Shown here piece by piece: positions 2,349-46,941 of a stretch of 64,000 bases of DNA. The notes beneath the pieces are model-generated. The model worked only from the letters and a program-made list of their open reading frames with translations, did not search any database and had not been told where the DNA came from. A program made the position numbers and the translations under genes. The stretch's first letter is position 1. The number at the start of each line of letters is the position of its first letter. Location: NCBI GenBank assembly GCA_000146465.1, contig CP001951.1. The stretch is one strand, 5' to 3'.

Positions 2349-5300
2349 TTACACATCAAGCCTACTTCCGTACACAATAGTCTTCAAGTATTCCCTGTCG
2401 CAGTGCCCCATGTTCTCGGCACAGAGCATAAGATCTTTTAGGCCGAATTGGCTATTCCTGTTGGACATTTCCACATGGAATTTCACCAGATCTTCATCTC
2501 CTCCAGAAAAAGATGCAATGGCAGTCCCCTCCTGTGTTCCATAGCCTTTACAATAAACAACCTTGGTATCCTCCATCAAAGAGTGTTTTTTCCCTTCCTC
2601 AATCGTGAGTATCAGCCTGCTATTTCCAGATTTCTTACAGCTTCCCAGGAAATGTATGTTTTTTATCAAGTAGGTTCTGTCTTCCTGAGACTCCTCTTCC
2701 AACATCCTGTAGATCTTCTCATTGTTTTCCTTGGGCCCTGCCGATATCACAGCCGTTATCGCCATCTTTTCTTCGATAATGTGTGTTGCGATATCGCAAG
2801 CAATTATAAGAGTGTAGTCAAACGGATGCCTTGACATTTCATGAATTAAGCCTTCATATTCATCTTTGGTGTCTGGAAATGTGCTTGAGTAAAAGGAATC
2901 TACACTCCTCGAAATCACATCTCTTACCAAGTTCATATCCGCATCTACCATACCAGCCCACATATTCTCGAAGTTGTCCCTGCACAATCTACTTTCAAGA
3001 ATGGGATATATCACGTTCTCCACATACTCCCTATAAATCCTGAAAGAAAGATGTACTCCATACGCTTCAAAGAAGATTTTACTCTTTCTACCAAACACTA
3101 GATTAAGAATTTCATATACCTCTCTCTTTTTGCTATGCTGTTTGCTGATGCTTCTTTCCTTCTCCAATTTCTTTTTATGCTCGTAGACTTCATTGAGCGG
3201 TGCATGTTCAACTATCAGTTCAAGAAGTCTCTCCTCCAACCGCTCTAGATTCCCTGACTCCTCTGTCTCAAATCTCTCTACAAAACTACAGTTGTATGTA
3301 TATTCCTTGTAAGGATTTGTCTTTGTGCTCGATACCAGTATAATAGAGTATTGTGGATTGTCCATCTGCCGTTTGAGAGCTCTATACACGTCCTTGTCAA
3401 ACCGATCGCATCCATAAACAATGACATCGTTCCCATAGTAGCTGCAGTTGGACAATACCTGCTTGTAGTTTTTATCTTCAAGGCTGGTCGAGATAAACCT
3501 TCTTGCCCTGGTAAGAGCCGAAATGCCACTGCTATGAACAAATCCGTTTCTTTTGCAATGAAGAACCCAGTCGGTGCTCGAGAGAATATACTTTATAGGA
3601 CACAAGTATTTCATTCTTCTCCATTTCTCCACCTCATCAGATAGCTCTCTTACAATCTTATCCATCAGGAGAGCTCTTTCATCTGCCGACTTGATTTCCT
3701 TCTTTATAGACTCAAGCTTAAGAACCGATGCATTATATTCGTCTTTCATTGCCTCAATTTTCTTTTCAATCTGTAAAAGCTTCTTTTCCTCCTCCTCTAT
3801 TTCCTTCCTGCTCTTTTCAACCTCCTTCCCAAGCACTGCTATCTCTTGATCCAGAGGAGAAATCTCCTCCATAGTCTTGGCATATTTATATCTCGCCATC
3901 ACCCACATAAAGAGTGGCCCGCAAGCACTACTTGCCTTCTGTGCCTTTTCATAGCTGAACAGAGGATTCGATATCATATTCTCGAGAACATCAGGTACTT
4001 TTGTACTCCTGCAGTTCAGAACCTTAGAAACAAAATCCTCTCTTTTCATAAACTGGATCAATTGTTTCCATTCAATGCTCCCTCCCTTTGTCTCTCCTTC
4101 CACAATCCAATACACTGCCTCTACAGTGTTTCTAACTATTTCAGGCGGGTTGATCATCACTCTGATCTCCGACAAGCTACTCTTCGGCAGTTCCTCTATA
4201 CTTCTTCTAGACTCAGATAGTAATGTCTTTGCCACTCTAAGCCTTTTGTCTATCACCTCCTGTTTCTTCTGATTCATCATCAACGCTCCTTCTATTTCTC
4301 TCTTCCTGTTTCCGATTGCTCCTTTCTCCCTTTCTAACTGTTTCTGGGTATTGATGATCTTTTCGAGCTGCCCGTCTAGCCTGTCCGTGAGCTTTTCCAG
4401 ATCCTTTTTCTTTCGAGAAGATTCAAGCCCTAGGGCTAGTGCCTCCTTTCCGAAGTCCTCAATCTTCTGCAGCCCCCCTATCAGGAATTTCCTTCTTCTA
4501 GATTCCTTTTCCTTGAACTCTCTTGCAATCCTTGCAAAGCTCATTCCGAACCCAATTGCTTTACAGAGGAAACCAGTTGTCACCACATTGGGATGCTGGC
4601 ATTCCCATGGATGTCCATCTTCCTCGACTCCCATTGCCAAGGAAGATGTTTCCGAAGGAATCCCTTCATTTTCCAAGTCAATGTTGATACCAACATTTGT
4701 TGTAAAGCATTCTTTTACCATATCCAGATCGGATATGTCTTTGCTTCTCACCATATTATAGATCTTAAGTAGGTCCAGAGAATAATAAGCTGTTCTCTTC
4801 AGCTTGAAAATCATACATTGGTTGGATATATCTTTCCTTAGAGAAGACACATCCTCTACAAGAAAAGCAGTTTGCCCATCAATCTTCTTTTCGTCCTCAT
4901 TACTAACTATCCTTACATTTTCCTTCATCTGTCTCATACACTCTCTCACCACCCAATGCTTTCCTGACATCCTACCTCCTTCAATCACAAGATTGTACCC
5001 TCTGTGGAAAATAGACCCTACGTAGGAAATATCGCTGCATCTCTTTGCCCTTCTGAACCTTCTAGTCTCAAGATTAAACTCAATCTCTTCAGGACGTCTT
5101 CCAAAAGCCCTTTGCATCTCTTCTTCCAAATCCTTTGATTCTCCAAAGTAAATCTTTGCTTCAAAGTACATCAGATCAACCAAATCTCCCTCCTCCATAC
5201 ACAGATCCCCTAGTGTCCTGATAAAGCTGGTGATTTCCTTCAGGTTGACTTTGAAGTTTTTGTAGATAAACTCCACCACCTGTAAGACCCTTTTGTAGTC

Positions 5301-8300
5301 CTGGAAATGCTTCGTTGCTTCAAATCTTTTTCTGATTTCCGACTCAAAAAGAAGTTCCGTATCTCTCGGCTCTTCCACAAATATAGACTTTATCTTTCTT
5401 CTCAGTCTTTCTGCTGCCGTGTTCCGAATTGCATCATTCCCTTTCTTTTCATTGATTCCACATATTAAAACCATGTTCTTTACCTCTATCTCTCCAATTC
5501 TTCCACACTCGTTATATTCCCTAACTGCCTCCACCAGACTTACATTCCTACAGTCAAAACCCTCAATGTAAACCACCGATCTTAAATCATATATCTTCTC
5601 TTCTCCTACTCTCTTTATCTTGTCTTCCCCAAGACTTTGAGCGATCATCGAGGTCTCAAATCCGTTTCCCTCAATCACAACAACCTTCTCCTTAAAAACC
5701 TCTTCAACCAACGACCTCTTCCCAACTCCTACTTCTCCTCGCATGAAAAAGACTTTTGAACCGTCTTTTACTAGTGCTTCCATTGCCCTTGCATAAAAGC
5801 TCTGTTCTTCTGTTACCACCAAACCTCTAAATGGGAACACAGGTACCTTTCTTCCATCGTATCTTATGTCCATACCAGTCCCAACAGTGTTTTGGAGATT
5901 CCCTATCTGGTAAAGATCGTCCTCTTCCATGTGAACAAGAAACACCCTGGTTAGGGTGGCAGGTGTTATATTCTCCATAGACGTGCTTTCAAACACAAAC
6001 CTATAGTGGTCTGGAATCCTAATTCTTTCTCCGGAACTCAGGCATAGTAACTTATTTTCGTCTAATATAGAGTTGAAATCTTCAATCCAGAAGGACTCTG
6101 CAATCCCATCAAATACAAACCAGCATTCCTTGCTACTGTCCATGTTCCTTCTTAGATCTCGAACAAACTTGCTATCTTTCCACTCTCCAGTAACCTTGTC
6201 TTGGAATCCAAATATCTTCCCTATATTTCTCGGGTTGTAGTAAAAGCACATCGCTCCTCTGGACTCTCTTGCTAATTTTATCAATGTACTCTTCCCAGCC
6301 CCATTCCCTCCTATGACAAGAGCTCCTCTCCTGTTCTCCAACCCATATAGTAGCATGTCTTTGTGTGCTAGGTTCTGCTCCACTTTCCTTTCAAAAATCT
6401 TCTCAAATTCTTTAACAAATATAGCTTTGTCTTCCCGCCCAAGACAGGCCATATAAAAGTAGATTGCCGATCTCATAATCTCCGCCTCTTCTCTTCCCTT
6501 TGTGATCGTTCTTACTGCTCTTAACCCAAAATCATAATGATCCTGCTTACTTGCCTTGGACTCCACTTCCCTCATTAGCCTGTAGATCTTTTCCGAACTT
6601 TCTTTACAATAGTAGTCTATAATGTCTTTTATGTCTGGTGCATCTATTCTTGTTTCCCCGAGTATGGCTCTTAGGCTTCTAGGCATCCTGTACCGACCCT
6701 TATATCCTATGTTCATCGTAAGGAAGAACTTTGTCTTATTTTTGTTAAGGAGAATCAGCTCAGTCGCCCCACTCATTATCTCTTCACTCAGTCGATTGAA
6801 CTCGTCAAAACATAAGTAAGACCCTGTAAGAACTGCCCCCGAAATAACATTTCTTAAGGTTTCAAGCTCACACCCTTCGTTGCAGCAAAAAACAAAAACA
6901 GGCTTTCCAATAAGCCTACAGTAGTATTTCACCGACTCTGTCTTTCCTGTTCCGCTTCTTCCATACAGAATCACCCCACATAAACTTTTTAGCGAAATGG
7001 CTATACTTGAAAGTACCCTACATACTAAGGGTGTAAATACAATGTCTACCGGTGGGTAGTATTCAAAACCATACTCTATCTCTTCAGTGGAATCCATAAA
7101 GAGCTCCCCACTCTTCAGTACAGGTTTTGGATATAGCCTTATCACTCCATTCGGATGCTTCTCAATCTCCCTTTCTAGTACTCTAAGCTTTGGAGTCATT
7201 TCAAAATCTCTTTTGTTGAAGTACTTAAACTCGGAAATCAAATCGGAAATAATTGACGGACATCCCTCTTTGAGACTCTCCAGACCATCGTGGAACCAGG
7301 ATTTGAGGGTTCTCTTGACCTCTTCTTCAAATGTATCCATAAACCCTCCAATATCTTGGTCAATCTGTACCTTCTGGCGAAGCATCACTGTCTCCCCGTT
7401 ACCTTCAAATCCCAAAATACTGCCGTTTTCGACAATAACACCATCTATGTTGAACATCATTCCCAACATCTCCACATAATAGGATCTACTATTCAGCCCC
7501 CGTATAAGATCGATGTCCGAAACAAGATAAAGCCTAGGTGTTCTTTCCCTACATCTCCTAAGGAATACTTTGAGACCTTTCGATATATCGTCAAAGTCTT
7601 TCTTCATACCGAGAAACTCATCTTTATGAGGTAAAAGAGCCCCAAGCTTAACCTCCCATCCACTGGAAGAACTTGGAGTGCTAAATCTATTCAAGACGTC
7701 CAGGAATCTTTTTTTTATCATGGAGTATTTCTTAGCTTCAAAGTCTAATCCATCAGTGGAAAAAACATTTGCGAACTCCCTTATTCCTCTCTGGACCTCT
7801 TCAAGACAAGCCAGAAAGCTGAGACAATCGTCCATGCGCTCCTTAATCCCATTAAGCTCCTCTATAAAGAAGTTCTTTTCATTGAACCTCGATATTGAGT
7901 CATGCTCCACAAGAAGCTTATTAACTCTCTCCTCAACTTGGCTCAAGTCTGGTATAACTACTTCCTCCTTCCGAAGATGCCTCACCTTCAAACTCACTAA
8001 GAATATTTCAGCCCTAGCCCTCTCTATATACCTTTCAACCTCATACTCCATCCTTGAATCGGCTAGCCTCTTTTCTACCTCATCTTTATCCTGTAGAAGA
8101 AAAAATTCCTTTGTCTCCATCTCTGTGTCAAAGTACTTCTTTTTTACATAGGGACTTTTTGTATGCTGTAGACAATCCAACCCAGATATATAGTATTTTA
8201 TCTTACTCTGAAACTCCTTATAATATTCTGCATGGAATAGAGATACATCAATGGACTTTAGAAAAGAGGAAAGTTGCTCCACATCTACATCACATACTTT

Positions 8301-10337
8301 TTGGGACTCATACTTCTTGAGGATAGTCTCAAACCTACTAAAGGTGGCCCACTCAGCATCCAATCCTCCTATTCTTTCTTGTAAGGAACTGCAAATCAAA
8401 GGATAATCCACAATACCAAGAATCTTGTTGAATCTTTTGATTTTCTCTTCAAGCTCTTCGTATCTTGTCTTAAGAGATTTAAACATAGGCCAAAACATTA
8501 GTCCGTCTCTTTCCTTGGCTGCATTGTCTATCTTTTCCCCAAAATCTCGAATCTCAGAGACCAAGGCCTCTCGTCTTGACTTTATGATGCCAAACGGAAT
8601 ATCATTTAGAAATAAGTTCAAGGCTTCCCTGTTTGCTTCTAGAGCACTATCCCTTTCACTCCGGACAGTCTCAATGGCCACGCTTGGTCTTTCCAGTCCA
8701 TACTCAATGACGGCCCCATTCAACTCTTCAAGAATTCGAAATTCCTCGGACCGGAGATATTCATCAACCAGTATGGAATTGGATATTCCCTCAAGCAGAT
8801 CTCTTCTCTCCATACTGCTTTCTTGGGATCCAGAATCTCCCATGCCCCCAACCATATCCTTCCTTGCAGCTAGCATATCGTAGACTCTGGAGTTTTCTGC
8901 ACTTACAAACCTGCAAACTTCATCGCATACCGTCTCAAACAACCTCGCTTGTTCTGAAGCATCCATAGTATGTTCAAAGGTAAAAAATGGAATTGTATTC
9001 TTAACAAACATCTCGACACTTCTTTGCGAATCCCGGACTCTCAGAAACCTTTCGTAAAGCCCCAAAGGAAGGTCCCAAGTCGGAATCAACTCCAATATTC
9101 TTGTGCAGGTTTCATAATTTGCCACAACCATTCCAATTATTTTTTCCACTTTAGACCTTATTTCCTGGCCTGGCCTGAGCCTTTGAAGAACCTTTTCAAA
9201 GAAATATCCTTCTCCTTCCGAAGGAAATATCTTCTCCAAAATCTTAAAGTACTCAGAAAGAGGAGGTTCAAAACAATGCTCCACACCATTCCCACATCCT
9301 TCGATCTTTACAATTTCTTTCTTAAGCCTATGTTTTGAGGAAAACAGACTGCTGTCTCCTGCTTCTAAGGCCTCCAGTACAGATTCAAGATATTGTAGGA
9401 ACACTCTGCTCATAGACCTATTTATCCCTCGCACTACAATGCTCTTTTCGTAAAACTTAAAAAACTCCAAGTAAGTCTCGCTGTCGAGAGAAAACAGCAT
9501 CTGCTTCTGGATTTGTTTGGAAAATATTGCTTTCATTTCCTCCTTGGCTATCTTTTTTAAAAGGAATCTGTAGGTGTAAACCCTGTTCTCAAGCTCCCGA
9601 ACTCTGTCGTCGATCTCTTCTATGTCTTGGAAGTCCTTTGCATCCTTCCATCGCAGCATCAAGATCTTTTCCATTGATCCAAACACCAAATCTATCTCCT
9701 TGTGAAACAGATCTAGGTCTTCACGCACATCCTCCAATATCCTGTTGATTCTCCTGCATCCATCATCAATTCTTGTGTAAATAGATCTAGCCTCTAATGC
9801 TAAAGCCATTGTCTCATGGATAGGTTGAGAAATCCGAGACCTAACACCCTCCAGAGATACAATAGTCATGTACTCATCCAGCCTCTTTAGAATGGTAGGC
9901 TCAGGTGACACCTTGAACTTCCTGTTTCCATCGGCTTCCCTACTAATGCTCACTATTCTTCCCCAGGAAAATCCATCAGAAAGCACGGAATTTTCCCACT
10001 CATATATTGTGTCACTTACCTGTCTTTCTATGCTCTTTTTCATCCTTCGGATCTCCCACAGCTGCACTATCCCGTCATAATCCTGCCCAAAAAATAGATC
10101 TAGAATCTTCCAGACTTCTCCAAACATGTCGTGAAACATGAACAGTCTAGATAGCTTATTACAGAAATTGTCATCCAGAGATGGAGGACATGACTTTACA
10201 ATAGAGTCTAGGTATCTGACAATCATCATCCTATTGTTAACTGTTTTTCTTGCGAAAATCTCGAACAGGTTGAAGATGGAGAACATTTTCATGACCTTGC
10301 ATAGCTTGTGAAACTTATCTCCATCCTCCTGTGGCAA
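2349..10337 (-). CDS. Dynein heavy chain, linker, AAA+ motor and C-terminal portion
   Basis: A 2662-aa ORF with AAA1 P-loop context (GRSGTGKTESVKYYCRLIGKPVFVFCCNE), further AAA modules (GGNGAGKSTL, GEVGVGKRSL) and the stalk coiled coil. Its first codon is TTG, and the frame stays open upstream into the overlap with ORF 10315..11820, so this is the downstream part of a split gene. Confidence 0.85.
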   Translation of the reverse strand: MPQEDGDKFHKLCKVMKMFSIFNLFEIFARKTVNNRMMIVRYLDSIVKSCPPSLDDNFCNKLSRLFMFHDMFGEVWKILDLFFGQDYDGIVQLWEIRRMKKSIERQVSDTIYEWENSVLSDGFSWGRIVSISREADGNRKFKVSPEPTILKRLDEYMTIVSLEGVRSRISQPIHETMALALEARSIYTRIDDGCRRINRILEDVREDLDLFHKEIDLVFGSMEKILMLRWKDAKDFQDIEEIDDRVRELENRVYTYRFLLKKIAKEEMKAIFSKQIQKQMLFSLDSETYLEFFKFYEKSIVVRGINRSMSRVFLQYLESVLEALEAGDSSLFSSKHRLKKEIVKIEGCGNGVEHCFEPPLSEYFKILEKIFPSEGEGYFFEKVLQRLRPGQEIRSKVEKIIGMVVANYETCTRILELIPTWDLPLGLYERFLRVRDSQRSVEMFVKNTIPFFTFEHTMDASEQARLFETVCDEVCRFVSAENSRVYDMLAARKDMVGGMGDSGSQESSMERRDLLEGISNSILVDEYLRSEEFRILEELNGAVIEYGLERPSVAIETVRSERDSALEANREALNLFLNDIPFGIIKSRREALVSEIRDFGEKIDNAAKERDGLMFWPMFKSLKTRYEELEEKIKRFNKILGIVDYPLICSSLQERIGGLDAEWATFSRFETILKKYESQKVCDVDVEQLSSFLKSIDVSLFHAEYYKEFQSKIKYYISGLDCLQHTKSPYVKKKYFDTEMETKEFFLLQDKDEVEKRLADSRMEYEVERYIERARAEIFLVSLKVRHLRKEEVVIPDLSQVEERVNKLLVEHDSISRFNEKNFFIEELNGIKERMDDCLSFLACLEEVQRGIREFANVFSTDGLDFEAKKYSMIKKRFLDVLNRFSTPSSSSGWEVKLGALLPHKDEFLGMKKDFDDISKGLKVFLRRCRERTPRLYLVSDIDLIRGLNSRSYYVEMLGMMFNIDGVIVENGSILGFEGNGETVMLRQKVQIDQDIGGFMDTFEEEVKRTLKSWFHDGLESLKEGCPSIISDLISEFKYFNKRDFEMTPKLRVLEREIEKHPNGVIRLYPKPVLKSGELFMDSTEEIEYGFEYYPPVDIVFTPLVCRVLSSIAISLKSLCGVILYGRSGTGKTESVKYYCRLIGKPVFVFCCNEGCELETLRNVISGAVLTGSYLCFDEFNRLSEEIMSGATELILLNKNKTKFFLTMNIGYKGRYRMPRSLRAILGETRIDAPDIKDIIDYYCKESSEKIYRLMREVESKASKQDHYDFGLRAVRTITKGREEAEIMRSAIYFYMACLGREDKAIFVKEFEKIFERKVEQNLAHKDMLLYGLENRRGALVIGGNGAGKSTLIKLARESRGAMCFYYNPRNIGKIFGFQDKVTGEWKDSKFVRDLRRNMDSSKECWFVFDGIAESFWIEDFNSILDENKLLCLSSGERIRIPDHYRFVFESTSMENITPATLTRVFLVHMEEDDLYQIGNLQNTVGTGMDIRYDGRKVPVFPFRGLVVTEEQSFYARAMEALVKDGSKVFFMRGEVGVGKRSLVEEVFKEKVVVIEGNGFETSMIAQSLGEDKIKRVGEEKIYDLRSVVYIEGFDCRNVSLVEAVREYNECGRIGEIEVKNMVLICGINEKKGNDAIRNTAAERLRRKIKSIFVEEPRDTELLFESEIRKRFEATKHFQDYKRVLQVVEFIYKNFKVNLKEITSFIRTLGDLCMEEGDLVDLMYFEAKIYFGESKDLEEEMQRAFGRRPEEIEFNLETRRFRRAKRCSDISYVGSIFHRGYNLVIEGGRMSGKHWVVRECMRQMKENVRIVSNEDEKKIDGQTAFLVEDVSSLRKDISNQCMIFKLKRTAYYSLDLLKIYNMVRSKDISDLDMVKECFTTNVGINIDLENEGIPSETSSLAMGVEEDGHPWECQHPNVVTTGFLCKAIGFGMSFARIAREFKEKESRRRKFLIGGLQKIEDFGKEALALGLESSRKKKDLEKLTDRLDGQLEKIINTQKQLEREKGAIGNRKREIEGALMMNQKKQEVIDKRLRVAKTLLSESRRSIEELPKSSLSEIRVMINPPEIVRNTVEAVYWIVEGETKGGSIEWKQLIQFMKREDFVSKVLNCRSTKVPDVLENMISNPLFSYEKAQKASSACGPLFMWVMARYKYAKTMEEISPLDQEIAVLGKEVEKSRKEIEEEEKKLLQIEKKIEAMKDEYNASVLKLESIKKEIKSADERALLMDKIVRELSDEVEKWRRMKYLCPIKYILSSTDWVLHCKRNGFVHSSGISALTRARRFISTSLEDKNYKQVLSNCSYYGNDVIVYGCDRFDKDVYRALKRQMDNPQYSIILVSSTKTNPYKEYTYNCSFVERFETEESGNLERLEERLLELIVEHAPLNEVYEHKKKLEKERSISKQHSKKREVYEILNLVFGRKSKIFFEAYGVHLSFRIYREYVENVIYPILESRLCRDNFENMWAGMVDADMNLVRDVISRSVDSFYSSTFPDTKDEYEGLIHEMSRHPFDYTLIIACDIATHIIEEKMAITAVISAGPKENNEKIYRMLEEESQEDRTYLIKNIHFLGSCKKSGNSRLILTIEEGKKHSLMEDTKVVYCKGYGTQEGTAIASFSGGDEDLVKFHVEMSNRNSQFGLKDLMLCAENMGHCDREYLKTIVYGSRLDV

Positions 10338-11781
10338 TAATACCCCCAGAACTTCGGTTTCTTTCTTTCTCGCCTTCCTCCAGGATATCAGAGTCTATGT
10401 CGCAAATCCTTTCGAAAGCCTCGTTGAAAACATCGGAGACAAACCCCTCCTGTTGGTCAAATACAACTTCTAGTCTAGCCTTAATGTTGAAGAGATCTTT
10501 CTTCATCCATCCTACCACAGGCCTCAAGTCAGGATCTCCAATCTCAGATATCATTTCTTGTAGCAGGCTTCTGTATCTTATTTCATGGGCAGCCTTTTCT
10601 GGAGAACTCTTCAGTAACTTAGGAACAACTGCTCCAAGTCCCTTGAACGACCAAGAAAAGAGAAGGATTTTCTTGATGTCTTTGAATTCGGAGTGAAATT
10701 TGGCCAACTCCTCTCCTCCCCTGAATTCATAGAACAATGACGACTCTAAGGACATGGCCTCAGATTCCTCGCCCTCCCTAGAAACAGTAAGTGAGCACAT
10801 ACTCTCTATAGAGCATAAAAGTAGTTCTTCACAACACTTAAGCCACCCAATCGATAGGTTCTCATGCACCTTGTCGATTATTAGCCAAACTAGTCTATCC
10901 ATCTGGGAAAGAATCAGTTTTCGAGCCATCTTCGACTGTCTTCCAATTCTTCTGCCGATTTCCTTTATAGCACTAACTGTAGAGTCCTTGAACTCGTCCA
11001 AGCTCCTTGGAAAATAAACTCCCTTAAAGTCCATGCCCTCATAGAAGCCATGAAGCCCTCTTCCAAGTTCGAAGTACTTGTTTGATAACATCAAGCTCTC
11101 TAGGGTTGCTGCAGAAACAAACCTTTTACTCCTCTTCAAAACATCATGAACAAATCCAAATACTTCGGACTTTCCGAATTCTCTTATATAGCACATCTCC
11201 ATATAGAATTTGCTCCAGAAGGTCTTTTCCTCATGAAACCCACTTCTTTTGAATCCTACGGACTCATGAAGTCCTCTTATGCAGCTGGTCCACTGTTCCA
11301 CATTCCTATGAATAAGCTCCAGCTCACCACTAGAAAGAAACCTTTCGGGGTCAAGCCCATTCTGAAGCTCCTCACCATGCTTCCTATAAAGCCGATCCAT
11401 TTCCTGGGTTTCCATGCTAAGATAGATCTTTTCTTTCTTATCTTCTTCACTTACGGCTTTGCTGAGATGCAGGGCATGATGCTCTAACAACCGGAGAGCC
11501 TTCTCTACAGCCACAGATACACCCTTCTTTTTAATCCTAGACATGGTGGCTGGTATTACGAAGTTCGACATTGCATCTACCATGAATTCACATGAGCCTT
11601 TGAGTATGAGAAGCCCATCCTTCCTGTGATTGACTATACAGTCTGCTCCGACCTGGGATTTCTCTTTACATTCATAGGAATGTCCATTACTATCCGAGAT
11701 ACATTTATGAAAATCCGTAGTAGACTTCAATTTGTCCACAATTCTGTCTATCTCATCGCAAAGTGTATTGTTTGTGTCCAT
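10315..11781 (-). CDS. Dynein heavy chain N-terminal tail portion, separated from the motor ORF by a +1 frame break
   Basis: The track ORF is 10315..11820, first codon TTG; the first ATG (MDTNNTLCDEIDRIV...) is at 11781..11779. It ends at TAA 10317..10315, only 23 nt inside the start of the 2349..10337 ORF. Both frames are open across 10318..10394, a stretch that includes the C5 homopolymer at 10343..10347. It lies on the same strand and is contiguous with the motor ORF, and together they total about 3,150 aa. Confidence 0.55.
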   Translation of the reverse strand: MDTNNTLCDEIDRIVDKLKSTTDFHKCISDSNGHSYECKEKSQVGADCIVNHRKDGLLILKGSCEFMVDAMSNFVIPATMSRIKKKGVSVAVEKALRLLEHHALHLSKAVSEEDKKEKIYLSMETQEMDRLYRKHGEELQNGLDPERFLSSGELELIHRNVEQWTSCIRGLHESVGFKRSGFHEEKTFWSKFYMEMCYIREFGKSEVFGFVHDVLKRSKRFVSAATLESLMLSNKYFELGRGLHGFYEGMDFKGVYFPRSLDEFKDSTVSAIKEIGRRIGRQSKMARKLILSQMDRLVWLIIDKVHENLSIGWLKCCEELLLCSIESMCSLTVSREGEESEAMSLESSLFYEFRGGEELAKFHSEFKDIKKILLFSWSFKGLGAVVPKLLKSSPEKAAHEIRYRSLLQEMISEIGDPDLRPVVGWMKKDLFNIKARLEVVFDQQEGFVSDVFNEAFERICDIDSDILEEGEKERNRSSGGIIATGGWR

Positions 11782-11804
11782 TGGAGGGTCAGAAGAGCAA
11801 AGAT

Positions 11805-12725
11805 ATGAGAACCTTAACAATTGATGGAAGAGCCCTAGTTATGGACATCCACATGCTAAGAAAGGAAAGAGAAAACTGCATCAATGAAAGAGATCGGCTC
11901 ATTTCTGAAATGGACTCTTTCATCGTAGGGTCGATGGGGGAAATAAGAGAAGCATTGACCATTCCCGAAACTACTGTCTGGGAAATCTCTCAGGAGGATC
12001 TCTTGCTATTTGTCTCCTGGAGGATATCCAAGCTGATTTCTCTAACAAGAGATAAAAAGATAGAAATTCTCAGCAAGCTCGTTTGGGAAAAGGTGAACTA
12101 CAAAGACTTGGAGAACATCCTAGTCGCCGAGTATTGCTACAAAAAAGTGTTGGCAAACGACTTTTCGGAAAGTTCTGCCTGGGATACCGATGTTTACATT
12201 GACATAGGAAATGGGGATGTGGACATAAAAAGCGATTCTGTGGAAAGAATAACAACTGGTTCGGATGGGGTCTTTTACAGATCACTGAATGGTCTATTTT
12301 CGAAGAGGTTCCATGTGAGGGTTAGCAAGGAGCTAATGAGGTCTTATGCCCTGAATATAAAGGTGGAGATGGGCCTGGAGATCTTCAAAAGCCTCTATGA
12401 GAAGGATGAGGAAGACCTGAAAAGGCTGTCATCATACAAACACTACAAGGAGAAAGGGCTTCCCACACTCGTTATGAGCGGTGAAATGACAAGTAATCTG
12501 ATGGAAGACATAAGAGCAAGAGTTTCCCAGGAAGTTACTGGAATAATTGCTGCAGAAATGCCAGACAGAAAAAAGGCGCTTCTCATCACCTACCTCCTTG
12601 TGATGTTTGGAGGAATCGGGTCGGATCTTGACTTAAGCTATTTCAATGGGAAGAAAGAATTATACATGCTGGAATGGACAAAATCCAAAGAAAATATTTT
12701 TATCAAAATACAACTCGAGAGCTAA
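11805..12725 (+). CDS. Hypothetical protein
   Basis: The track ORF is 11763..12725, first codon GTG; the first ATG (MRTLTIDG...) is at 11805. It is divergent from the dynein ATG at 11781, only 24 nt away. I recognise no family. Confidence 0.4.
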   Translation: MRTLTIDGRALVMDIHMLRKERENCINERDRLISEMDSFIVGSMGEIREALTIPETTVWEISQEDLLLFVSWRISKLISLTRDKKIEILSKLVWEKVNYKDLENILVAEYCYKKVLANDFSESSAWDTDVYIDIGNGDVDIKSDSVERITTGSDGVFYRSLNGLFSKRFHVRVSKELMRSYALNIKVEMGLEIFKSLYEKDEEDLKRLSSYKHYKEKGLPTLVMSGEMTSNLMEDIRARVSQEVTGIIAAEMPDRKKALLITYLLVMFGGIGSDLDLSYFNGKKELYMLEWTKSKENIFIKIQLES

Positions 12726-12729
12726 CACC

Positions 12730-13863
12730 TTAATACAGTTTAAGCAGGGATCCTTTTACACATCGGTCCCTGGACCTCTGAGCTTTCTGCAACTGCTTTT
12801 CGCTGTATGTGAAAATAAATTCGTTTCCACTTATTCTCAACATCTTGTATGCAGAAAGAGTACCTACTATGTCGTCCTCAGATATGTGAGTTTCTTTGGA
12901 TATCTCGTTGATGCTTGCTTTGTCGTGTCTTGAAAGATACTCTACAACAACCTCCATCCAATATGCTCTGTAGCTAAGAAGCCCAAGATCACTCAGAGGC
13001 TTTTCAGGCCCGGAAATCACATTTTCTCTTTTGCTGAGTAGGTATGAGAAGTCGATCAGGACTCTCCCATATCCCTTTCTTTGCTCAAAAGGAAGGGTCA
13101 AGATGCATGCAAGATTGTATCCCTGCTCAGACACCTTTTCCTTTGAGAAGTATCCCACTATCTGGTATCCGTTGTCTTCCAGCCTGCAGAGCACATAAAA
13201 CATAAATACATCTATATCGTAATAGAGCGACTTGTGATCCAAAAACAGCTTTGAAAGTAGAGATAAGTTCCTACAGTAGTTTTTCTGTATGTGCCCGTCG
13301 CATTCAAAAAAACTTAAGTCTCCGTCCCGGTATATCTCTCTTCCGGGAGGATGGCGAAGCTTGCATTGCCTTGCATGCTGAGTCAGGCTGTCCATTGTCC
13401 CAAAATAGTAAAGACAGAACTCGCATATGTAAACCACGTCGTTCTCGGCTATTGCCTTTGGATATGGCGAGAAATACCATGCATCCACAAGATAATTCCG
13501 AAGCATGATCTTCTTGACGTTCTTCATCTTGAACTCTTCATCCTGAGGCGGCTTCTCCAGCTTAGGCTCTTCATCCCCTCCTCCATCCTCCTTTTCCGAG
13601 TCTCTTCTCGACTTCTCGGTCTTTGTCTTTTCCGACTTCTTTTTCTTAGGAATCTCCACCTGAGAAGGGTCGCTGAGGTCAACCATCGACGAGTCTATCC
13701 ACTCATCAAGCCTTCTGTTCAGCTCCACATAATGGACATAGAACTCAAGCCTGGAGTTGGTTGTTCTTGTCCCAAGAACCTCTGCTTTGAATACTTCTTC
13801 GGCCCCATCCACAATCTTCTTGACTGGAACTTTGAATCCTATACAAACATCCTCGAGCTTCAT
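12730..13863 (-). CDS. ESA1: MYST-family histone acetyltransferase (Esa1/Tip60-like) with an N-terminal chromo/tudor-knot domain
   Basis: The first ATG is at 13863 (MKLEDVCIGFKV...; the track start at 13884 is TTG). The chromo-like block YVHYVELNRRLDEWI, the C2HC zinc finger CEFCLYYFGTMDSLTQHARQC, the acetyl-CoA site QRKGYGRVLIDFSYLLSKRE and LSDLGLLSYRAYW are the MYST HAT signature. Confidence 0.85.
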   Translation of the reverse strand: MKLEDVCIGFKVPVKKIVDGAEEVFKAEVLGTRTTNSRLEFYVHYVELNRRLDEWIDSSMVDLSDPSQVEIPKKKKSEKTKTEKSRRDSEKEDGGGDEEPKLEKPPQDEEFKMKNVKKIMLRNYLVDAWYFSPYPKAIAENDVVYICEFCLYYFGTMDSLTQHARQCKLRHPPGREIYRDGDLSFFECDGHIQKNYCRNLSLLSKLFLDHKSLYYDIDVFMFYVLCRLEDNGYQIVGYFSKEKVSEQGYNLACILTLPFEQRKGYGRVLIDFSYLLSKRENVISGPEKPLSDLGLLSYRAYWMEVVVEYLSRHDKASINEISKETHISEDDIVGTLSAYKMLRISGNEFIFTYSEKQLQKAQRSRDRCVKGSLLKLY

Positions 13864-13913
13864 AGGCTGGTGGCTTCCATGCAAATTTTTAGGAAATCAA
13901 CTCTTCCCTCCAG
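13864..13913. promoter_or_regulatory. 50-nt bidirectional promoter between ESA1 (minus) and NIP7 (plus), with a shared AAATTTTT box
   Basis: The sequence is ggctggtggcttccatgcAAATTTTTaggaaatcaactcttCCCtCCag, followed by the NIP7 ATG at 13914. Read on the other strand, the same box sits about 25 nt upstream of the ESA1 ATG. Confidence 0.3.
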
Positions 13914-14444
13914 ATGAGGGATTTAAAACAGGAAGAGGAGGAGAAGGTCCTCAAGAAGCTTAAGTTTTTCATTGGCGACAATGTCAACAGGATTCTTTCT
14001 GGAGAAGAAAAGCTCTTTTTGCACAACCAGCGTGTCATGCTCCTTTCGGAAAAGATGAAAGCGGCAACATCTATGATATCCAGGAAAAATCTCATCATGG
14101 CAGGGACGGTGATAGGGAAGTTTACCAAGAATGGGAACTTCCGGCTGGGAATATCGTCTTTGAACCTTCTCTCCAAGTGGGCCATACACAAGGTCTGGAT
14201 CAAGAGCAGTGCAGAAATGAATTATGTGTATGGAAACAACTCTCTGAAATCTCATATATTCCGGAGCTCTGAGGGAATTCCCATCAATGCAGGAGTCTTT
14301 GTATTCAATCAGCATGATGTTCCTCTTGGGTTTGGGATTACTTCCTTGACGCCTCAGGCTTACTCTGCAGCAAAGGGACATGCACTTGTCCTTCTAAGAC
14401 AGTCGGATACAGGAGAGTATGTCCGTAACGAAGAAAAAATATAA
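13914..14444 (+). CDS. NIP7: 60S ribosome subunit biogenesis protein NIP7 (PUA domain)
   Basis: The 176-aa product has FIGDNVNRIL, RVMLLSEKMKAATSMISRKNLIMAGTVIGKFTKNGNFRLGISSLNLL and HKVWIK, in the same order as conserved NIP7. Confidence 0.8.
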   Translation: MRDLKQEEEEKVLKKLKFFIGDNVNRILSGEEKLFLHNQRVMLLSEKMKAATSMISRKNLIMAGTVIGKFTKNGNFRLGISSLNLLSKWAIHKVWIKSSAEMNYVYGNNSLKSHIFRSSEGIPINAGVFVFNQHDVPLGFGITSLTPQAYSAAKGHALVLLRQSDTGEYVRNEEKI

Positions 14445-14538: not shown

Positions 14539-16923
14539 ATGTCTGGAAAGAAGGAGAGACTTCTGAAAAAGTATTTGGAAAAGAAAAAGAGGCAGAGGAA
14601 TAGAGATGAGCTGTATGCACAGATAGCTGCATTATGTAGGCCTGAGGAGGATAGAAAGGAACAAGAAAAGTCTGAAAAGAGGAAGCTGGAAGAGGTCCGG
14701 AGTGATTCTGAAGACATCTCGTTGTCAGTCTCAGAAGACTCTCCATCTTCCTCAGAAAATGAGGTAGGCCATTCTTTACAAACCAAGGCGATGGATGTTG
14801 GATGTGAAACCATGAAAGACTCGAATGAGGAGGAGGCAATGGATATGTATTTGTGGGATACCCACGCAAGAAACATCCAAGAAGAAGCCAAGAATGCCAT
14901 GGTATTTTCCGAGGATAAAGAGTCTTCGGAGTGTGAAGACGGCACTGGAGATTCTGTTTCTGAAGACAGAAATACCTACATTTCTGAAGAGACAGGAAAA
15001 GATGTATCCAAAGAGTATGAGACAAAGACTCTTGAAAACCGACGGGAAGACATCGAAGAGTACAGAAAGACATTGCCGATTTACTACGAGAAGGCGGAAA
15101 TCATATTTACAGTCCGGAACTCCTCGATAGTATTTATTACGGGAGCAACTGGATGCGGGAAGACAACCCAAATTCCACAGTTTCTCTATGAAGGGGGGTT
15201 GGGGACATATGGAATGATAGGTGTTACACAGCCAAGAAGAATATCGGCAGTCTCGATATCCGGAAGGATCAACGAAGAAGCTAATGAGGATATTTGTGGA
15301 TACAAAATCCGGTACGAGTCGTCGGTTACTTCTGAAACCAAGATCAAAGTAATGACGGACGGAGTACTACTAAGAGAAATACAAGAGGATTTTCTCTTGT
15401 CAAAGTATTCTGTCATCATCATTGATGAGGTTCATGAAAGAAGCACTAACATCGACCTCCTAGTCTCTATGATTCCTCGGATCATGAAGATAAGAAAGGA
15501 AAGAGGAAATGAGCTTAAGCTAGTTCTGATGAGTGCCACCGGAGATGTGGATGAATTCAAAGCATTCCTTGGAGACATTACTGTCTTTAGATGTCCTGAG
15601 AAGGGATTCCAGGTGAACACGTTCTATGAGGAAAGGACCGAAATGGACTATCTGAATGCAGCATATGAAAGAATAAGAAAGATAATTCTTTCTGGATCCG
15701 ACTCTGGAAAGAGAAGAAAGATGAATGGAGAAAGGTCGGATGTGATTGGCTCTGCCGTTTCCAACGACAAGTCTGCTTCAATTCTTGTTTTTCTTAGCAG
15801 CAAGCAAGAGATATATCAGCTCAAGAGTAGGCTGGAAGGTTCTGGAATGGATTTGACTGCTCTCCCTCTCCATTCATCTCTCTCTCGAGCGGAGCAGGAG
15901 CTTGTGTTTAAAAAAACTCCGAATAGGAAGGTAATACTTGCCACCAATGTTGCAGAAACCAGTATTACAATACCAGACATTGTCTTTGTGGTTGATTCGG
16001 GGAAAGTCAAGAACCGGATGGTTGACTCCGAGGGAATTACAAGATACTCTGTCGACTTTATTACGAAGTCAAGCGCAACCCAAAGAATGGGAAGAGCTGG
16101 GAGAACCGGGCCTGGAATATGCTACCGACTGTATTCTGGAAAGGCTTATGAGAAGTTCTTTGAGTGTATGGAGCCGCAGATTTTGAGAGAACCTCTTGAT
16201 GGAGTAGTGCTCGGCCTTCTGTCTCTGGGAATTGGAAATGTTTATGGATTTCCGTTTCTCTCCAGGCCTGAAAAGAAATCCATAGCTAGTGCCACTATGC
16301 GCCTCCAAGCACTGGGTGCAATTGATGGAAACCTAAGGTTAACAGAGCTGGGGAAGAAGATGTCGATGTATCCTGTAGAACCTAGGCTGGCAAGACTGCT
16401 TTGCGCACAGGGATTTGAGGATATATTTACTGAAATCCTTGTTCTTGTCAGCTTGATTTCCTTGGGTATCGAAGTGAGGAGGAACCACAGCAACGGAAAG
16501 TATTTTGAAGGCTCCAAAAGCGATCTTCTAGTTCTTCTGGGAATCTACAATGATTTCTTGAAGAGTAGAAATAGAAAGTCGTTTTGCACAGAAATGGGCC
16601 TGGGCTATACAACAGCAGTTGAGGCGATGAAGATGATAACACACCTGGCAAAAATCACTGGTGGTACAGTGGACAAAGTTGGGTCCCTAAACTTGACTCC
16701 GGACACATGTTCCCGAATAAGAAACATAATATATCGAGGATTTGCAGATCACCTAGCCATGCCTTTATCCGGCACTCATTTCTTTCAAAAAGAAGAAGTC
16801 TCTCCATCGAGGGATAGCGTCTCGGTTGAAAGCGGGGACTTTGTTGTCTTTGGGAGCCTGGTTTCTAGCAAAGGGAAGCTATATATGAAAAACATCACCA
16901 TTGTCGAGGAAAGCTGGTTTTAA
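14539..16923 (+). CDS. DEAH-box ATP-dependent RNA helicase (Prp43/Prp16/Prp22 family)
   Basis: Motif I GATGCGKTTQIPQFL, motif II IIIDEVHERS, motif III LMSATGD, QRMGRAGRTGPGICYRLYS and the HA2/OB C-terminal region. The N-terminus is acidic and Ser/Glu-rich. Confidence 0.8.
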   Translation: MSGKKERLLKKYLEKKKRQRNRDELYAQIAALCRPEEDRKEQEKSEKRKLEEVRSDSEDISLSVSEDSPSSSENEVGHSLQTKAMDVGCETMKDSNEEEAMDMYLWDTHARNIQEEAKNAMVFSEDKESSECEDGTGDSVSEDRNTYISEETGKDVSKEYETKTLENRREDIEEYRKTLPIYYEKAEIIFTVRNSSIVFITGATGCGKTTQIPQFLYEGGLGTYGMIGVTQPRRISAVSISGRINEEANEDICGYKIRYESSVTSETKIKVMTDGVLLREIQEDFLLSKYSVIIIDEVHERSTNIDLLVSMIPRIMKIRKERGNELKLVLMSATGDVDEFKAFLGDITVFRCPEKGFQVNTFYEERTEMDYLNAAYERIRKIILSGSDSGKRRKMNGERSDVIGSAVSNDKSASILVFLSSKQEIYQLKSRLEGSGMDLTALPLHSSLSRAEQELVFKKTPNRKVILATNVAETSITIPDIVFVVDSGKVKNRMVDSEGITRYSVDFITKSSATQRMGRAGRTGPGICYRLYSGKAYEKFFECMEPQILREPLDGVVLGLLSLGIGNVYGFPFLSRPEKKSIASATMRLQALGAIDGNLRLTELGKKMSMYPVEPRLARLLCAQGFEDIFTEILVLVSLISLGIEVRRNHSNGKYFEGSKSDLLVLLGIYNDFLKSRNRKSFCTEMGLGYTTAVEAMKMITHLAKITGGTVDKVGSLNLTPDTCSRIRNIIYRGFADHLAMPLSGTHFFQKEEVSPSRDSVSVESGDFVVFGSLVSSKGKLYMKNITIVEESWF

Positions 16924-20261: not shown

Positions 20262-23057
20262 TTAATTTTCATAAATATTACTTGCCTCTCCTCGCCCTGC
20301 CGATCTTTGCAGTGTTTCCTTTATCCTTTCAGCCCTTTCAACAATTTCTTCCGGAACCCCTGCCATTCTTGCAACATACAACCCATGGGAGTCCCAGGAC
20401 GTCCCATCCATGAGCTTGTACAAAAACACAATGTCCTTTCCCTTAACCGTCGAATTCATATATCCATTACTGACTCCTTCAACCTCTCTGATGATCCTGT
20501 GATAATGGGTTGAAAACAGAACATGGCATCCTCTCTCCTTAAGGTAGTCCAGAACGGCCCTGGCAATGCACTCTCCGTCTCGGGTCGAAGTCCCTCGTCC
20601 AAGTTCGTCCATCATCACAAGGGAGTTTCTTGTTGAGTGCTTCAGGATGCTTGCCGTTTCCCCTAGCTCAACCATAAACGTCGATTCTCCCTTTACCAGG
20701 TCATCCCGTGCCCCTATCCTGGTAAATATCCTGTCAAAGAGAGGCGTCTCCATCTTCTCACAGCACACATCCATTCCTGCCTGGCTGAGAATTACATTGA
20801 AGCACAAAGTCCTTAATAAGGTCGACTTTCCCCCCATGTTGGCACCAGTAAGCACAAGAATTCTCTTTTGTGCATTGTAGTCATTTGCTACAAAGGTAGG
20901 ATATATTGGATTCGACATTCCACAGATGCGAAGCCCTTCCGAAAAGGTGGGGGTTGTTGCTCTGTTCCTTTGCGAAAAGGTAGTAAACGAAAGATAACAA
21001 TCTACATTTGCAAGTTCCCAGAACATCTGGCGGAAGAAAACAACATGTGGAAGAAGTACATCTATGGCTCGCCTAAGCAACGACCCCTTGGATTGGAATA
21101 TCTTCTCTTCGCACTCAACATATCTTTCAACAAGATTTTTCAAATCTCTTGTGTAGTACCTATTGGTTCCCTTGGTGGAAGACATTATGAAGTAGTCTGA
21201 TGGAACTTTCGTCTCCTTTGCTACCTCCATTTGGAATATGTCCTTTCCTACGTCTTTGAACTTTATCGATTGACATTTTAGCCTGGCCTTTTGTTCCCGT
21301 AAATATTCATTCAGGCCTTCCTCAATTTCTCTCCTTTCTTTCATCAACTGGCACAGTTCATCTCCATCCTCCTCTCCAGGAGATATTTCTGTCTCGCTCA
21401 CATCATAGATTTTACGGTGCCATTCAAGCACTTTGCTTATTTCCCGGCTGAATTCTTCTGCCTTTGCAACCATAGATTCTGCGCTATCACTTTTCTGGCC
21501 CTTCAGTGTCTGTACCAAGACATCTCCTGCCTCTCTACAGGCATCCAGACACCTAATGAATTTGTTTAGGTCCTTAGTACCCGGGTTTCCATTGAAGAGC
21601 CTTGTCAAAAGCCTCTCCCCATCCCCTATCCTCGCCAAGGCATTCTTTAGGTTAGAAACCTCCACCTCTTTGAACATACGTGCTGTTTCTTGTCTCTTTG
21701 CAATGTCCTCCCTCCTTACAAGTGGTGCTGCTATCCATCTTCTAAGGAGCCTTTGTCCAAAGGGTGTGCTAGAGAAGTCAATTGCCTTGAAGAGAGTCTT
21801 CTCCCCTGTTCCATTGTAATTGTTCTTGAATATCTCCATATTCCGGAGAGTGGCGTCATCAACAACCATGGTTCTTGCCTCGTCCTGAAGCTTCGAGATC
21901 TTTACATTCTTCAAAGCATCACTTCTCCGAAGCTTCTCCATATACTTTGCCAAATACTGGAAACATACATACTCTCTGGAGTTTGAAAACTCATACTTCT
22001 TGCTTGACACATATCCCGTCTTATCAGGCACAACCCGTGGAATCCCTGGGATGGTGAAGTCTGCAATCATCTCCCGGACATCGTGTTGGGACAGAATTGT
22101 CTTGATTCCATGTCTTGCTCTGTCATCACAGAAAGACGAAAAATACACTTCTCCAATGCTTGCATCATACAGCAAAACAGATGTATGAATCTCTCCATTG
22201 CACTTCTCTGCATAACAAATCTCATCTGTCGCCACACTCATCAAATACATAGGAATTGACGACTTCATGTAGTCTATATTGTATATCGTCCCCTGTGTAA
22301 TAATCTCCTTAAGCTCTCGCCGTATTATTTTGTCCTTGGCCATCCTGCCCTCCACTCCCTTGCTCAGCTCGTCTCTTTCTCGTATCTGCTTTCCAATCAT
22401 GTTTTCGCTTTGGTCTACTCTAGCAATCTTGTATCCGTTCTCCAGAAACTTTCTGGTCCAGTAGTCAAGACTACTCTCAGGGAACCCGGACATCTTCATG
22501 TTTACTCTATCTGTAATTCTCAGATCAAATAGTTTTGCTCCGATAAGTGCATCGTTCTCGTATAGCTCGTAGAACTTTCCCTTCTTAAAGAACACAATCG
22601 TATCAAAATGATCCTTCTTTATGTCCCAAAATTGCTTTTCAAAGGGTGTAAATCTATTGTACTCGCTCTTCGGTATCAAGAGCGTTGAGGGATCATATCC
22701 TTCTTCTCCCACTCTTCTCCCGTTTCTGTCCCTAATATCTTCCAGAAATTTATATCTCTCCTCTGTCTTCTTCTCTTCTTTTTCTTCTTTTCCTAATCCC
22801 TTGTTGCTTCTATAAGATGGCTCCACATCCGAGGGTACTATAGGTTTGGAACCATCTGCTGCCTCTTCTCTTTCCTCGGGACTTGGAGCCTTACAAATTC
22901 TCTTGTGCTCCTTGAGATCCAAAATACCAGTGGAGTTTCTGCTGTTCTCCAAATCAACCATCCGGTCCAATGTCTCCCCAGAATCCTCCTTTTTCTTCGG
23001 AGCTTTAAAGTAGTCAAATAGTGTCTTTCTTTCTTTCATTTCCTGGCCTCTTACCAC
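20262..23057 (-). CDS. MSH6: DNA mismatch repair protein, MutS homolog of MSH6 type
   Basis: The mismatch-binding domain I has GKFYELYENDA (the Phe-x-Glu motif). The ABC ATPase carries TGANMGGKSTLLR, STFMVELGETASIL and MDELGRGTSTRDG. A long basic/acidic N-terminal extension is typical of MSH6. Confidence 0.8.
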   Translation of the reverse strand: MVRGQEMKERKTLFDYFKAPKKKEDSGETLDRMVDLENSRNSTGILDLKEHKRICKAPSPEEREEAADGSKPIVPSDVEPSYRSNKGLGKEEKEEKKTEERYKFLEDIRDRNGRRVGEEGYDPSTLLIPKSEYNRFTPFEKQFWDIKKDHFDTIVFFKKGKFYELYENDALIGAKLFDLRITDRVNMKMSGFPESSLDYWTRKFLENGYKIARVDQSENMIGKQIRERDELSKGVEGRMAKDKIIRRELKEIITQGTIYNIDYMKSSIPMYLMSVATDEICYAEKCNGEIHTSVLLYDASIGEVYFSSFCDDRARHGIKTILSQHDVREMIADFTIPGIPRVVPDKTGYVSSKKYEFSNSREYVCFQYLAKYMEKLRRSDALKNVKISKLQDEARTMVVDDATLRNMEIFKNNYNGTGEKTLFKAIDFSSTPFGQRLLRRWIAAPLVRREDIAKRQETARMFKEVEVSNLKNALARIGDGERLLTRLFNGNPGTKDLNKFIRCLDACREAGDVLVQTLKGQKSDSAESMVAKAEEFSREISKVLEWHRKIYDVSETEISPGEEDGDELCQLMKERREIEEGLNEYLREQKARLKCQSIKFKDVGKDIFQMEVAKETKVPSDYFIMSSTKGTNRYYTRDLKNLVERYVECEEKIFQSKGSLLRRAIDVLLPHVVFFRQMFWELANVDCYLSFTTFSQRNRATTPTFSEGLRICGMSNPIYPTFVANDYNAQKRILVLTGANMGGKSTLLRTLCFNVILSQAGMDVCCEKMETPLFDRIFTRIGARDDLVKGESTFMVELGETASILKHSTRNSLVMMDELGRGTSTRDGECIARAVLDYLKERGCHVLFSTHYHRIIREVEGVSNGYMNSTVKGKDIVFLYKLMDGTSWDSHGLYVARMAGVPEEIVERAERIKETLQRSAGRGEASNIYEN

Positions 23058-42464: not shown

Positions 42465-42520
42465 AGCCTTTTTCTCAAGTGCTGTTTGTCTTATAAACAA
42501 AAGAATTTTGTATGTATCAA

Positions 42521-42955
42521 GCCATGGCGGGTAGACAAAAATCAAATCAAGTTGACACCATTATTTAATCCCAAGAGTCTTGTCAATCTCCTCTGCAAAG
42601 TACTTCTCCACAAGCGCCCTTTTCTTCTTCGCTGTCGGCGTAAGCAGATCCGCGCCCTCAAAACTCTCAAACCCACGCCGCAGCACAACAACCTTCGACG
42701 GAATCTCAAGCCTCGTGATCCTCCTCTGCTTCACCAGCTTCTCTCCAACCTCCCGCAGGTGCTCCATAATCTCCTTCTCACTCCTCTTCTCGTCAGGACA
42801 CACAACAATCGCAATTATCCTCTCGCTCTCAGACCTCCGTGGAATAAACACATCCTGTATAATGTCTCCGTCAATGTACAGCGTCTCAAGCTTCTCAGGG
42901 TCAATGTACTCCCCCTGTGCAGTCTTGAATCCATCCTTCAGATGCCCAATCCCAG
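42521..42955. repeat. Left arm of a ~435-bp near-identical inverted repeat (a copy of the acyl-CoA synthetase 3' end plus about 40 bp of its 3' flank)
   Basis: The reverse complement of 42521..~42955 matches 46475..46910 nearly base for base, for example gccatggcgggtagacaaaaatcaaatcaagttgacacc at both outer ends. The encoded peptide LKDGFKTAQGEYIDPEKLETLYIDGDIIQDVFIPRRSESERIIAIVVCPDEK[R/K]SEKEIMEHLREVGEKLVKQRRITRLEIPSKV[V/I]VLRRGFESFEGADLLTPTAKKKRALVEKYFAEEIDKTLGIK differs at only 2 aa. Confidence 0.8.
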
Positions 42956-44651: not shown

Positions 44652-44722
44652 TCTAGGGCGATCAGAGCAAGTTGAATTTCTTGCAACTGGTTTCTTTCAG
44701 AATAAAAGATAAATGTAGAAGT

Positions 44723-44742
44723 CTATTCATATTAATGAATAG
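44723..44742. promoter_or_regulatory. Perfect 8-bp hairpin with a 4-nt loop in the divergent CPSF73/acyl-CoA-synthetase promoter
   Basis: ctattcat-atta-atgaatag (44723..44742), inside the 147-bp AT-rich spacer 44652..44798. Confidence 0.2.
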
Positions 44743-44798
44743 TATTACTATAAGCAGTAAATTGGAAACTATATAATAATAAATGTTATACAATTAGG

Positions 44799-46868: not shown

Positions 46869-46910
46869 TGGTGTCAACTTGATTTGATTTTTGTCTACCC
46901 GCCATGGCTC
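46475..46910. repeat. Right arm of the ~435-bp inverted repeat (native acyl-CoA synthetase 3' end plus 3' flank)
   Basis: See the left arm. This copy is in its native ACSL coding context, where the C-terminal lid domain is canonical, so it is the likely source copy. Confidence 0.8.
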
Positions 46911-46941
46911 TGATAATTTTTGTCTACCTTAAAACCCTGAA

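Follow-up and report, generated by a model that had tools for sequence, protein, structure and literature searches.

The dynein heavy-chain gene of Encephalitozoon intestinalis ATCC 50506 is interrupted by a frame break in the 2010 sequence of chromosome X, and alignment with other data from the species has shown this break to be caused by the gain of one 4-nt tandem unit that, among the sequences compared, is unique to the 2010 record. The extra unit (GAAA) is, we infer, most likely an artifact of sequencing or finishing in the 2010 assembly. If so, the organism itself would make one full-length dynein of 3,142 aa, and the extra unit would be no feature of it.

Both reading frames are read from the minus strand of the window (the whole 64,000-nt stretch of DNA analyzed here), and on that reading the original prediction had placed both ORFs, their stops, the zone open in two frames and the C5 run correctly (Table 1). 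The second frame (“frame B”) is open from 10394, just past the TAG, to its stop at 2349, and both frames are open together over 10318..10394. The 23-nt overlap described for the two ORFs depends on the start that is chosen: it exists if the second ORF is begun at the mechanically chosen TTG (10337), and with the ATG used by GenBank it becomes a gap of 22 nt. By exact-sequence look-up, the two ORFs are ADM12385.1 and ADM12384.1, proteins of E. intestinalis ATCC 50506 in a record of 234,890 bp; each is already labelled “dynein heavy chain” in GenBank/RefSeq, and the adjoining gene is Eint_100600. Within the 488-aa ORF, residues 1-473 are the true N-terminal tail of dynein, followed by an out-of-frame read-through to the TAA that makes up residues 474-488 (RNRSSGGIIATGGWR).

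Table 1. Features of the split dynein heavy-chain gene, in positions of the window
Feature	Position	Strand	Details
5' ORF	11781..10315	minus	ATG 11781, TAA 10317..10315; 488 aa = ADM12385.1/XP_003073745.1
3' ORF per GenBank	2349..10292	minus	first ATG; 2,647 aa = ADM12384.1/XP_003073744.1
Whole cytoplasmic dynein-1 heavy-chain gene	2349..11781	minus	without the extra 4 nt, 9,429 nt and 3,142 aa
TAG closing frame B upstream	10395..10397	minus	bounds the 77-nt zone open in both frames
Lesion tract AGAAAGAAAGAAA	10358..10370	minus	(GAAA)3 at 10358..10369; (GAAA)2 in the others
G5 run (C5 on the plus strand)	10343..10347	minus	encodes L-G-V of ...EVLGVLL... in intact alleles

On sequence criteria the two ORFs are parts of one cytoplasmic dynein-1 heavy chain, encoded by the organism's only dynein motor gene. 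The 3' ORF continues the tail and then carries the linker, AAA1, further AAA modules, a probable microtubule-binding stalk and the C-terminal end. In its translation, Pfam finds the DHC_N2 linker (PF08393; residues 652-1014, E=7e-19, above the curated cut-off), AAA_6 with the hydrolytic site of AAA1 (residues 1089-1318, E=1.7e-35) and AAA_5, and the Walker A P-loop GRSGTGKT is visible. The microtubule stalk family (PF12777) stays below threshold (22.7 bits for a cut-off of 24); in a phmmer alignment, residues 1919-2227 pair with the stalk of human DYNC1H1 (3183-3492). No Pfam family matches the 488-aa ORF, and no DHC_N1 is detectable in the tail; the ORF is identified through its agreement with the N-terminal end of the intact protein from the same species and through homology to the N-termini of orthologues. 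Among solved structures, yeast Dyn1 and human DYNC1H1 match best (E about 1e-73 to 1e-66), with dynein-2 and axonemal chains ranking lower, and the assignment to cytoplasmic dynein-1 follows this ranking of PDB sequence matches.

The lesion itself can be seen directly when the junctions are aligned. The tract reads GGCG-AGAA-AGAA-AGAA-ACC in the 2010 sequence and has two units in the other four assemblies. The additional unit is an exact copy of the adjacent repeat unit and the sole indel in 20.9 kb; BLAST sets it, as TTTC on the plus strand, at 10358..10361, although its placement within the tract is arbitrary. It affects codons 471-474 and its net effect on the frame is +1 nt, so that the +1 break originally described is borne out in frame terms, through a gain of 4 nt. 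When 10358..10361 was removed in silico, the resulting protein was identical to UTX46217.1 over all 3,142 aa (zero differences), and the true junction reads ...ILEEGEKETEVLGVLLPQEDGDKFHKL.... Tandem Repeats Finder reports no array in 10200..10500, the 13-nt tract being too short for it; the repeat was recognized through the direct alignment. With three GAAA units instead of two, the frame shifts and the shifted reading meets a stop 15 codons on, which is why GenBank lists a pair of neighboring CDSs, of 488 and 2,647 aa, that are both named “dynein heavy chain”.

The break had been placed between a tail ORF and a motor ORF. It lies instead inside the tail, at residue 473, and about 650 residues of the 3' ORF precede the linker.

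Intact alleles came from four other E. intestinalis assemblies, reached via neighboring genes, and from one Logan contig. The assemblies are a telomere-to-telomere (T2T) re-assembly of ATCC 50506 itself, built from Illumina, Nanopore and PacBio data (GCA_024399295.1, CP075167.1; PMC10158259), and draft assemblies of ATCC 50507, 50603 and 50651 (PMC12697097). In all four, dynein is a single gene of 3,142 aa. The T2T sequence of the same isolate has two GAAA units and encodes UTX46217.1; the dyneins of ATCC 50507, 50603 and 50651 (KAL7344864.1, KAL7346825.1 and KAL7348772.1, respectively) are likewise intact and identical to one another, and the repaired 2010 product differs from these three isolates by G997E only. 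The Logan contig, from the unrelated run ERR13302946, is identical to 10096..14053 except that it is without the 4 nt. Over 20.9 kb, just two differences separate the 2010 and T2T sequences, the lesion indel and a synonymous SNP (15199), and both are private to the 2010 sequence; across about 38 kb of unique sequence, its private differences from T2T number approximately one SNP and one indel. The other 9.4 kb of the dynein gene show no further defect and are 100% identical to the intact allele.

The orthologues tell the same story of a continuous protein. Searched against 1.84 billion representative proteins, the 488-aa ORF finds proteins 3,142, 3,076, 3,209 and 3,040 aa in length, in each case at the N-terminus. 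Its alignment to the 3,142-aa protein covers residues 1-474 at 100% identity, with an exactly identical prefix of 473 residues; together with the homology to the orthologues, this upholds the original view that the two ORFs belong to one dynein heavy chain. The orthologues of 3,076, 3,209 and 3,040 aa run continuously through the junction, where conserved residues (F-x-SDVFN before it, LG-x-L...F-x-KL after it) resume in frame B. The comparison of orthologue length and alignment that had been proposed as a check therefore gives continuous proteins of 3,040 to 3,209 aa: no sampled relative is split at the E. intestinalis break, and the sampled microsporidian relatives keep a full-length gene. 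In Ordospora pajunii, dynein is also annotated as two adjacent CDSs, KAH9411481.1 (2,182 aa) and KAH9411482.1 (972 aa), but the break is elsewhere, after ...ECVDRVLN in the region of the AAA ring, and an intact version of 3,197 aa exists in another record of the same 90% cluster.

Several observations favor an artifact of the 2010 assembly. The same ATCC isolate is intact on re-sequencing with three platforms, four other data sets are intact as well, and the remainder of the gene is flawless. Against this, the errors of Illumina sequencing are mostly substitutions, with 4-nt insertions rare; the gain of a tandem unit is a product of replication slippage in vivo; and the 2010 sequence is otherwise very accurate here. 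For the 2010 sequence, Corradi et al. assembled 31-nt paired Illumina reads with Velvet (k=19) at 40x coverage and closed breaks and joins via PCR, cloning and Sanger sequencing (PMC4355639). Finishing in 2010 relied on cloned PCR products (PMC4355639), which speaks for an artifact. A probable mis-join 32 kb away in the same assembly, at a chimeric CPSF73 gene, also counts in its favor. Since the 13-nt tract is shorter than the k-mer of 19 and Illumina errors are mostly substitutions, a 4-nt gain is an atypical error for Velvet and Illumina, and it needs either an artifact of finishing from PCR clones or real reads that carried the extra unit. On balance we favor an error of sequencing or finishing, and in this respect the sequencing error suggested at the outset has become the leading explanation, although the homopolymer then held responsible is not the site.

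The main alternative, in our view less likely, is a genuine slippage mutation private to the stock that was sequenced in 2010, which would knock out the only dynein heavy chain of the organism; the gene would then have become a pseudogene only very recently, or the culture would be polymorphic for the extra unit. Slippage classically produces tandem-unit gains such as this lesion, and the 2010 consensus is nearly error-free elsewhere in the 64,000 nt. DYN1 is non-essential in yeast, so that loss of dynein in cell culture is conceivable. Further, the tract is shorter than the k-mer of the assembler, and reads therefore probably supported it, to judge from the published methods (PMC4355639). The source of the DNA also counts against an artifact: in 2010 it was taken from spores that a collaborator had prepared (PMC4355639), and for the T2T assembly the parasite was grown from a culture supplied by ATCC (PMC10158259), so the stocks were probably different, with the 2010 passages silent on where theirs originated. 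A real mutation must, however, be reconciled with the intact T2T assembly of the same ATCC isolate, with four further intact data sets and with the full-length gene in all sampled microsporidian relatives; because the other 9.4 kb are free of defects and 100% identical to the intact allele, inactivation would have to be extremely recent.

Were the allele real, its product would be a tail fragment of 488 aa, and with no evident way of expressing the 3' part the allele would be null. That the 2010 stock truly carried (GAAA)3, and was thus a natural null for its only dynein while still growing and sporulating in cell culture, seems to us doubtful. If it were true, dynein would be dispensable for the microsporidian intracellular cycle, and a parasite that resists genetic manipulation would have yielded a dynein null mutant free of charge; on balance the evidence speaks against this.

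Two further readings keep the break as a working feature of the gene, and we consider both extremely improbable. One is that programmed +1 ribosomal frameshifting, or transcriptional slippage, joins the two frames. The 77 nt open in both would allow it, and shifting by +1 at AGA-TAA-G would lead into frame B; but the break is absent in every conspecific (n=5 sequences) and in the orthologues, leaving nothing conserved to program, no known +1 shift motif is present, and in the product 15 aberrant residues would replace conserved ones. The other takes the public annotation of two CDSs in GenBank/RefSeq at its word, as two separate functional genes for a tail protein and a motor protein. Here the product of 488 aa ends with 15 out-of-frame residues, the CDS of 2,647 aa begins at an arbitrary internal ATG 22 nt past the stop, and without the 4 nt this DNA forms a single gene in every other assembly, which bears out the original dismissal of two genes. 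The break shows no conservation of any kind, which in practice excludes both programmed frameshifting and two genes.

A change of length at the C5/G5 homopolymer, whether by error or by mutation, is the site that had first been proposed, and it is now ruled out for practical purposes, the run being of the same length in the broken and the intact alleles: removing one G does reopen a frame, as had been noted, and this frame has 3,143 aa, but all five intact sequences keep the same G5, they differ solely in the 4-nt unit, which lies 11 nt upstream of the run on the coding strand, and the repair yields ...EKERNRSSGVLLPQ..., with RNRSSG where the real protein of 3,142 aa reads TEVLG. This is a caution for readings made from one sequence: a homopolymer in a zone where two frames overlap is a tempting culprit and was here the wrong one.

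The main value of these results is for curation. The reference for E. intestinalis ATCC 50506 lists its single dynein as two entries (XP_003073745.1 and XP_003073744.1), and gene counts, inferences of pseudogenes and dynein phylogenies that draw on the 2010 record would be misled by them; UTX46217.1 should be used instead. Neither frameshifts nor dynein are discussed in the T2T paper (PMC10158259) or in the 2010 paper (PMC4355639), and none of the papers searched names ERR13302946, the protein accessions or the locus tags.

Elsewhere in the window, the CPSF73-like ORF (42561..44651, minus strand) is a chimera of 696 aa that ends in 127 residues from the C-terminus of an acyl-CoA synthetase; CPSF73 has its normal 643 aa in the T2T and ATCC 50507 sequences. 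In the T2T assembly two synthetase paralogues, 99.8% identical and inverted, flank CPSF73, and the 2010 sequence holds only a 442-nt remnant of one synthetase arm (42520..42961, compared with 46468..46909). The central segment of this region has opposite orientations in different assemblies, and a mis-join at CPSF73 in the 2010 assembly is probable.

The dynein gene is of a known type that is already annotated, in its reduced microsporidian form, and its corrected sequence is already public. The module order is the same as in Saccharomyces cerevisiae Dyn1 (4,092 aa) and human DYNC1H1 (4,646 aa), to which the matches cover AAA1 with the module that follows it and the region of the stalk. The E. 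intestinalis protein is, however, approximately 950 to 1,500 aa shorter than these two and, unlike them, has no detectable DHC_N1 and several AAA modules that fall under the Pfam cut-offs; such reduction and divergence of dynein is usual in microsporidia.

Besides the extra GAAA unit in the dynein gene of the window, only one difference private to the window separated it from the telomere-to-telomere (T2T) assembly of the same strain, ATCC 50506, over 20.9 kb: position 15199 is T in the window and C in all four other E. intestinalis assemblies, a synonymous change within a DEAH-type helicase gene (14539..16923). The dynein gene itself carries a true isolate polymorphism at position 8788 (codon 997), where the plus strand reads C, encoding Gly, in the two assemblies of ATCC 50506, whereas the DNA comparison gave T (Glu) in ATCC 50603 and ATCC 50651; codon 997 is likewise Glu in the intact dynein protein common to ATCC 50507, 50603 and 50651.

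Apart from the dynein tract, the window contains a single (GAAA)3, at 23026..23037, against a chance expectation of 0.06. It lies at the extreme 5' end of a MutS-family gene and is identical in the window and in one of the E. intestinalis loci with an intact dynein gene (L001). The public sequencing run ERR13302946 also contains E. intestinalis DNA; its Logan contig ERR13302946_279832 corresponds to 10096..14053 of the window at 100% identity except for the 4-nt GAAA unit. No mention of this run was found in the literature.

Coordinates of features in the window
Feature	Position	Strand	Description
MutS-family gene	20262..23039		as called in the other assemblies
Inverted repeat	arms 42520-42961 and 46468-46909, region 42515..46915		442 nt, 99%
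CPSF73-like ORF	42561..44651	minus	696-aa chimera

Farther along the window, the two inverted repeat arms enclose a 3.5-kb segment. The CPSF73-like ORF found here joins 569 aa of CPSF73 to the C-terminus of an acyl-CoA synthetase, which supplies the last 127 aa, whereas CPSF73 has its normal length of 643 aa in both the T2T and the ATCC 50507 assemblies; in the T2T assembly, it lies between two inverted synthetase paralogues of 689 and 623 aa that are 99.8% identical. The orientation of the central segment varies between assemblies. The region is probably an inverted duplication that was collapsed or mis-joined in the 2010 assembly, and it possibly exists as flip-flop isomers.

Outside E. intestinalis, the dynein of another microsporidian, Ordospora pajunii, is annotated as two adjacent CDSs (KAH9411481.1, 2,182 aa, and KAH9411482.1, 972 aa), with the frame break falling after ...ECVDRVLN. 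The 90% cluster of this split form (P0002 and P0018) also includes a JGI/IMG record (P0019) with an intact protein of 3,197 aa.
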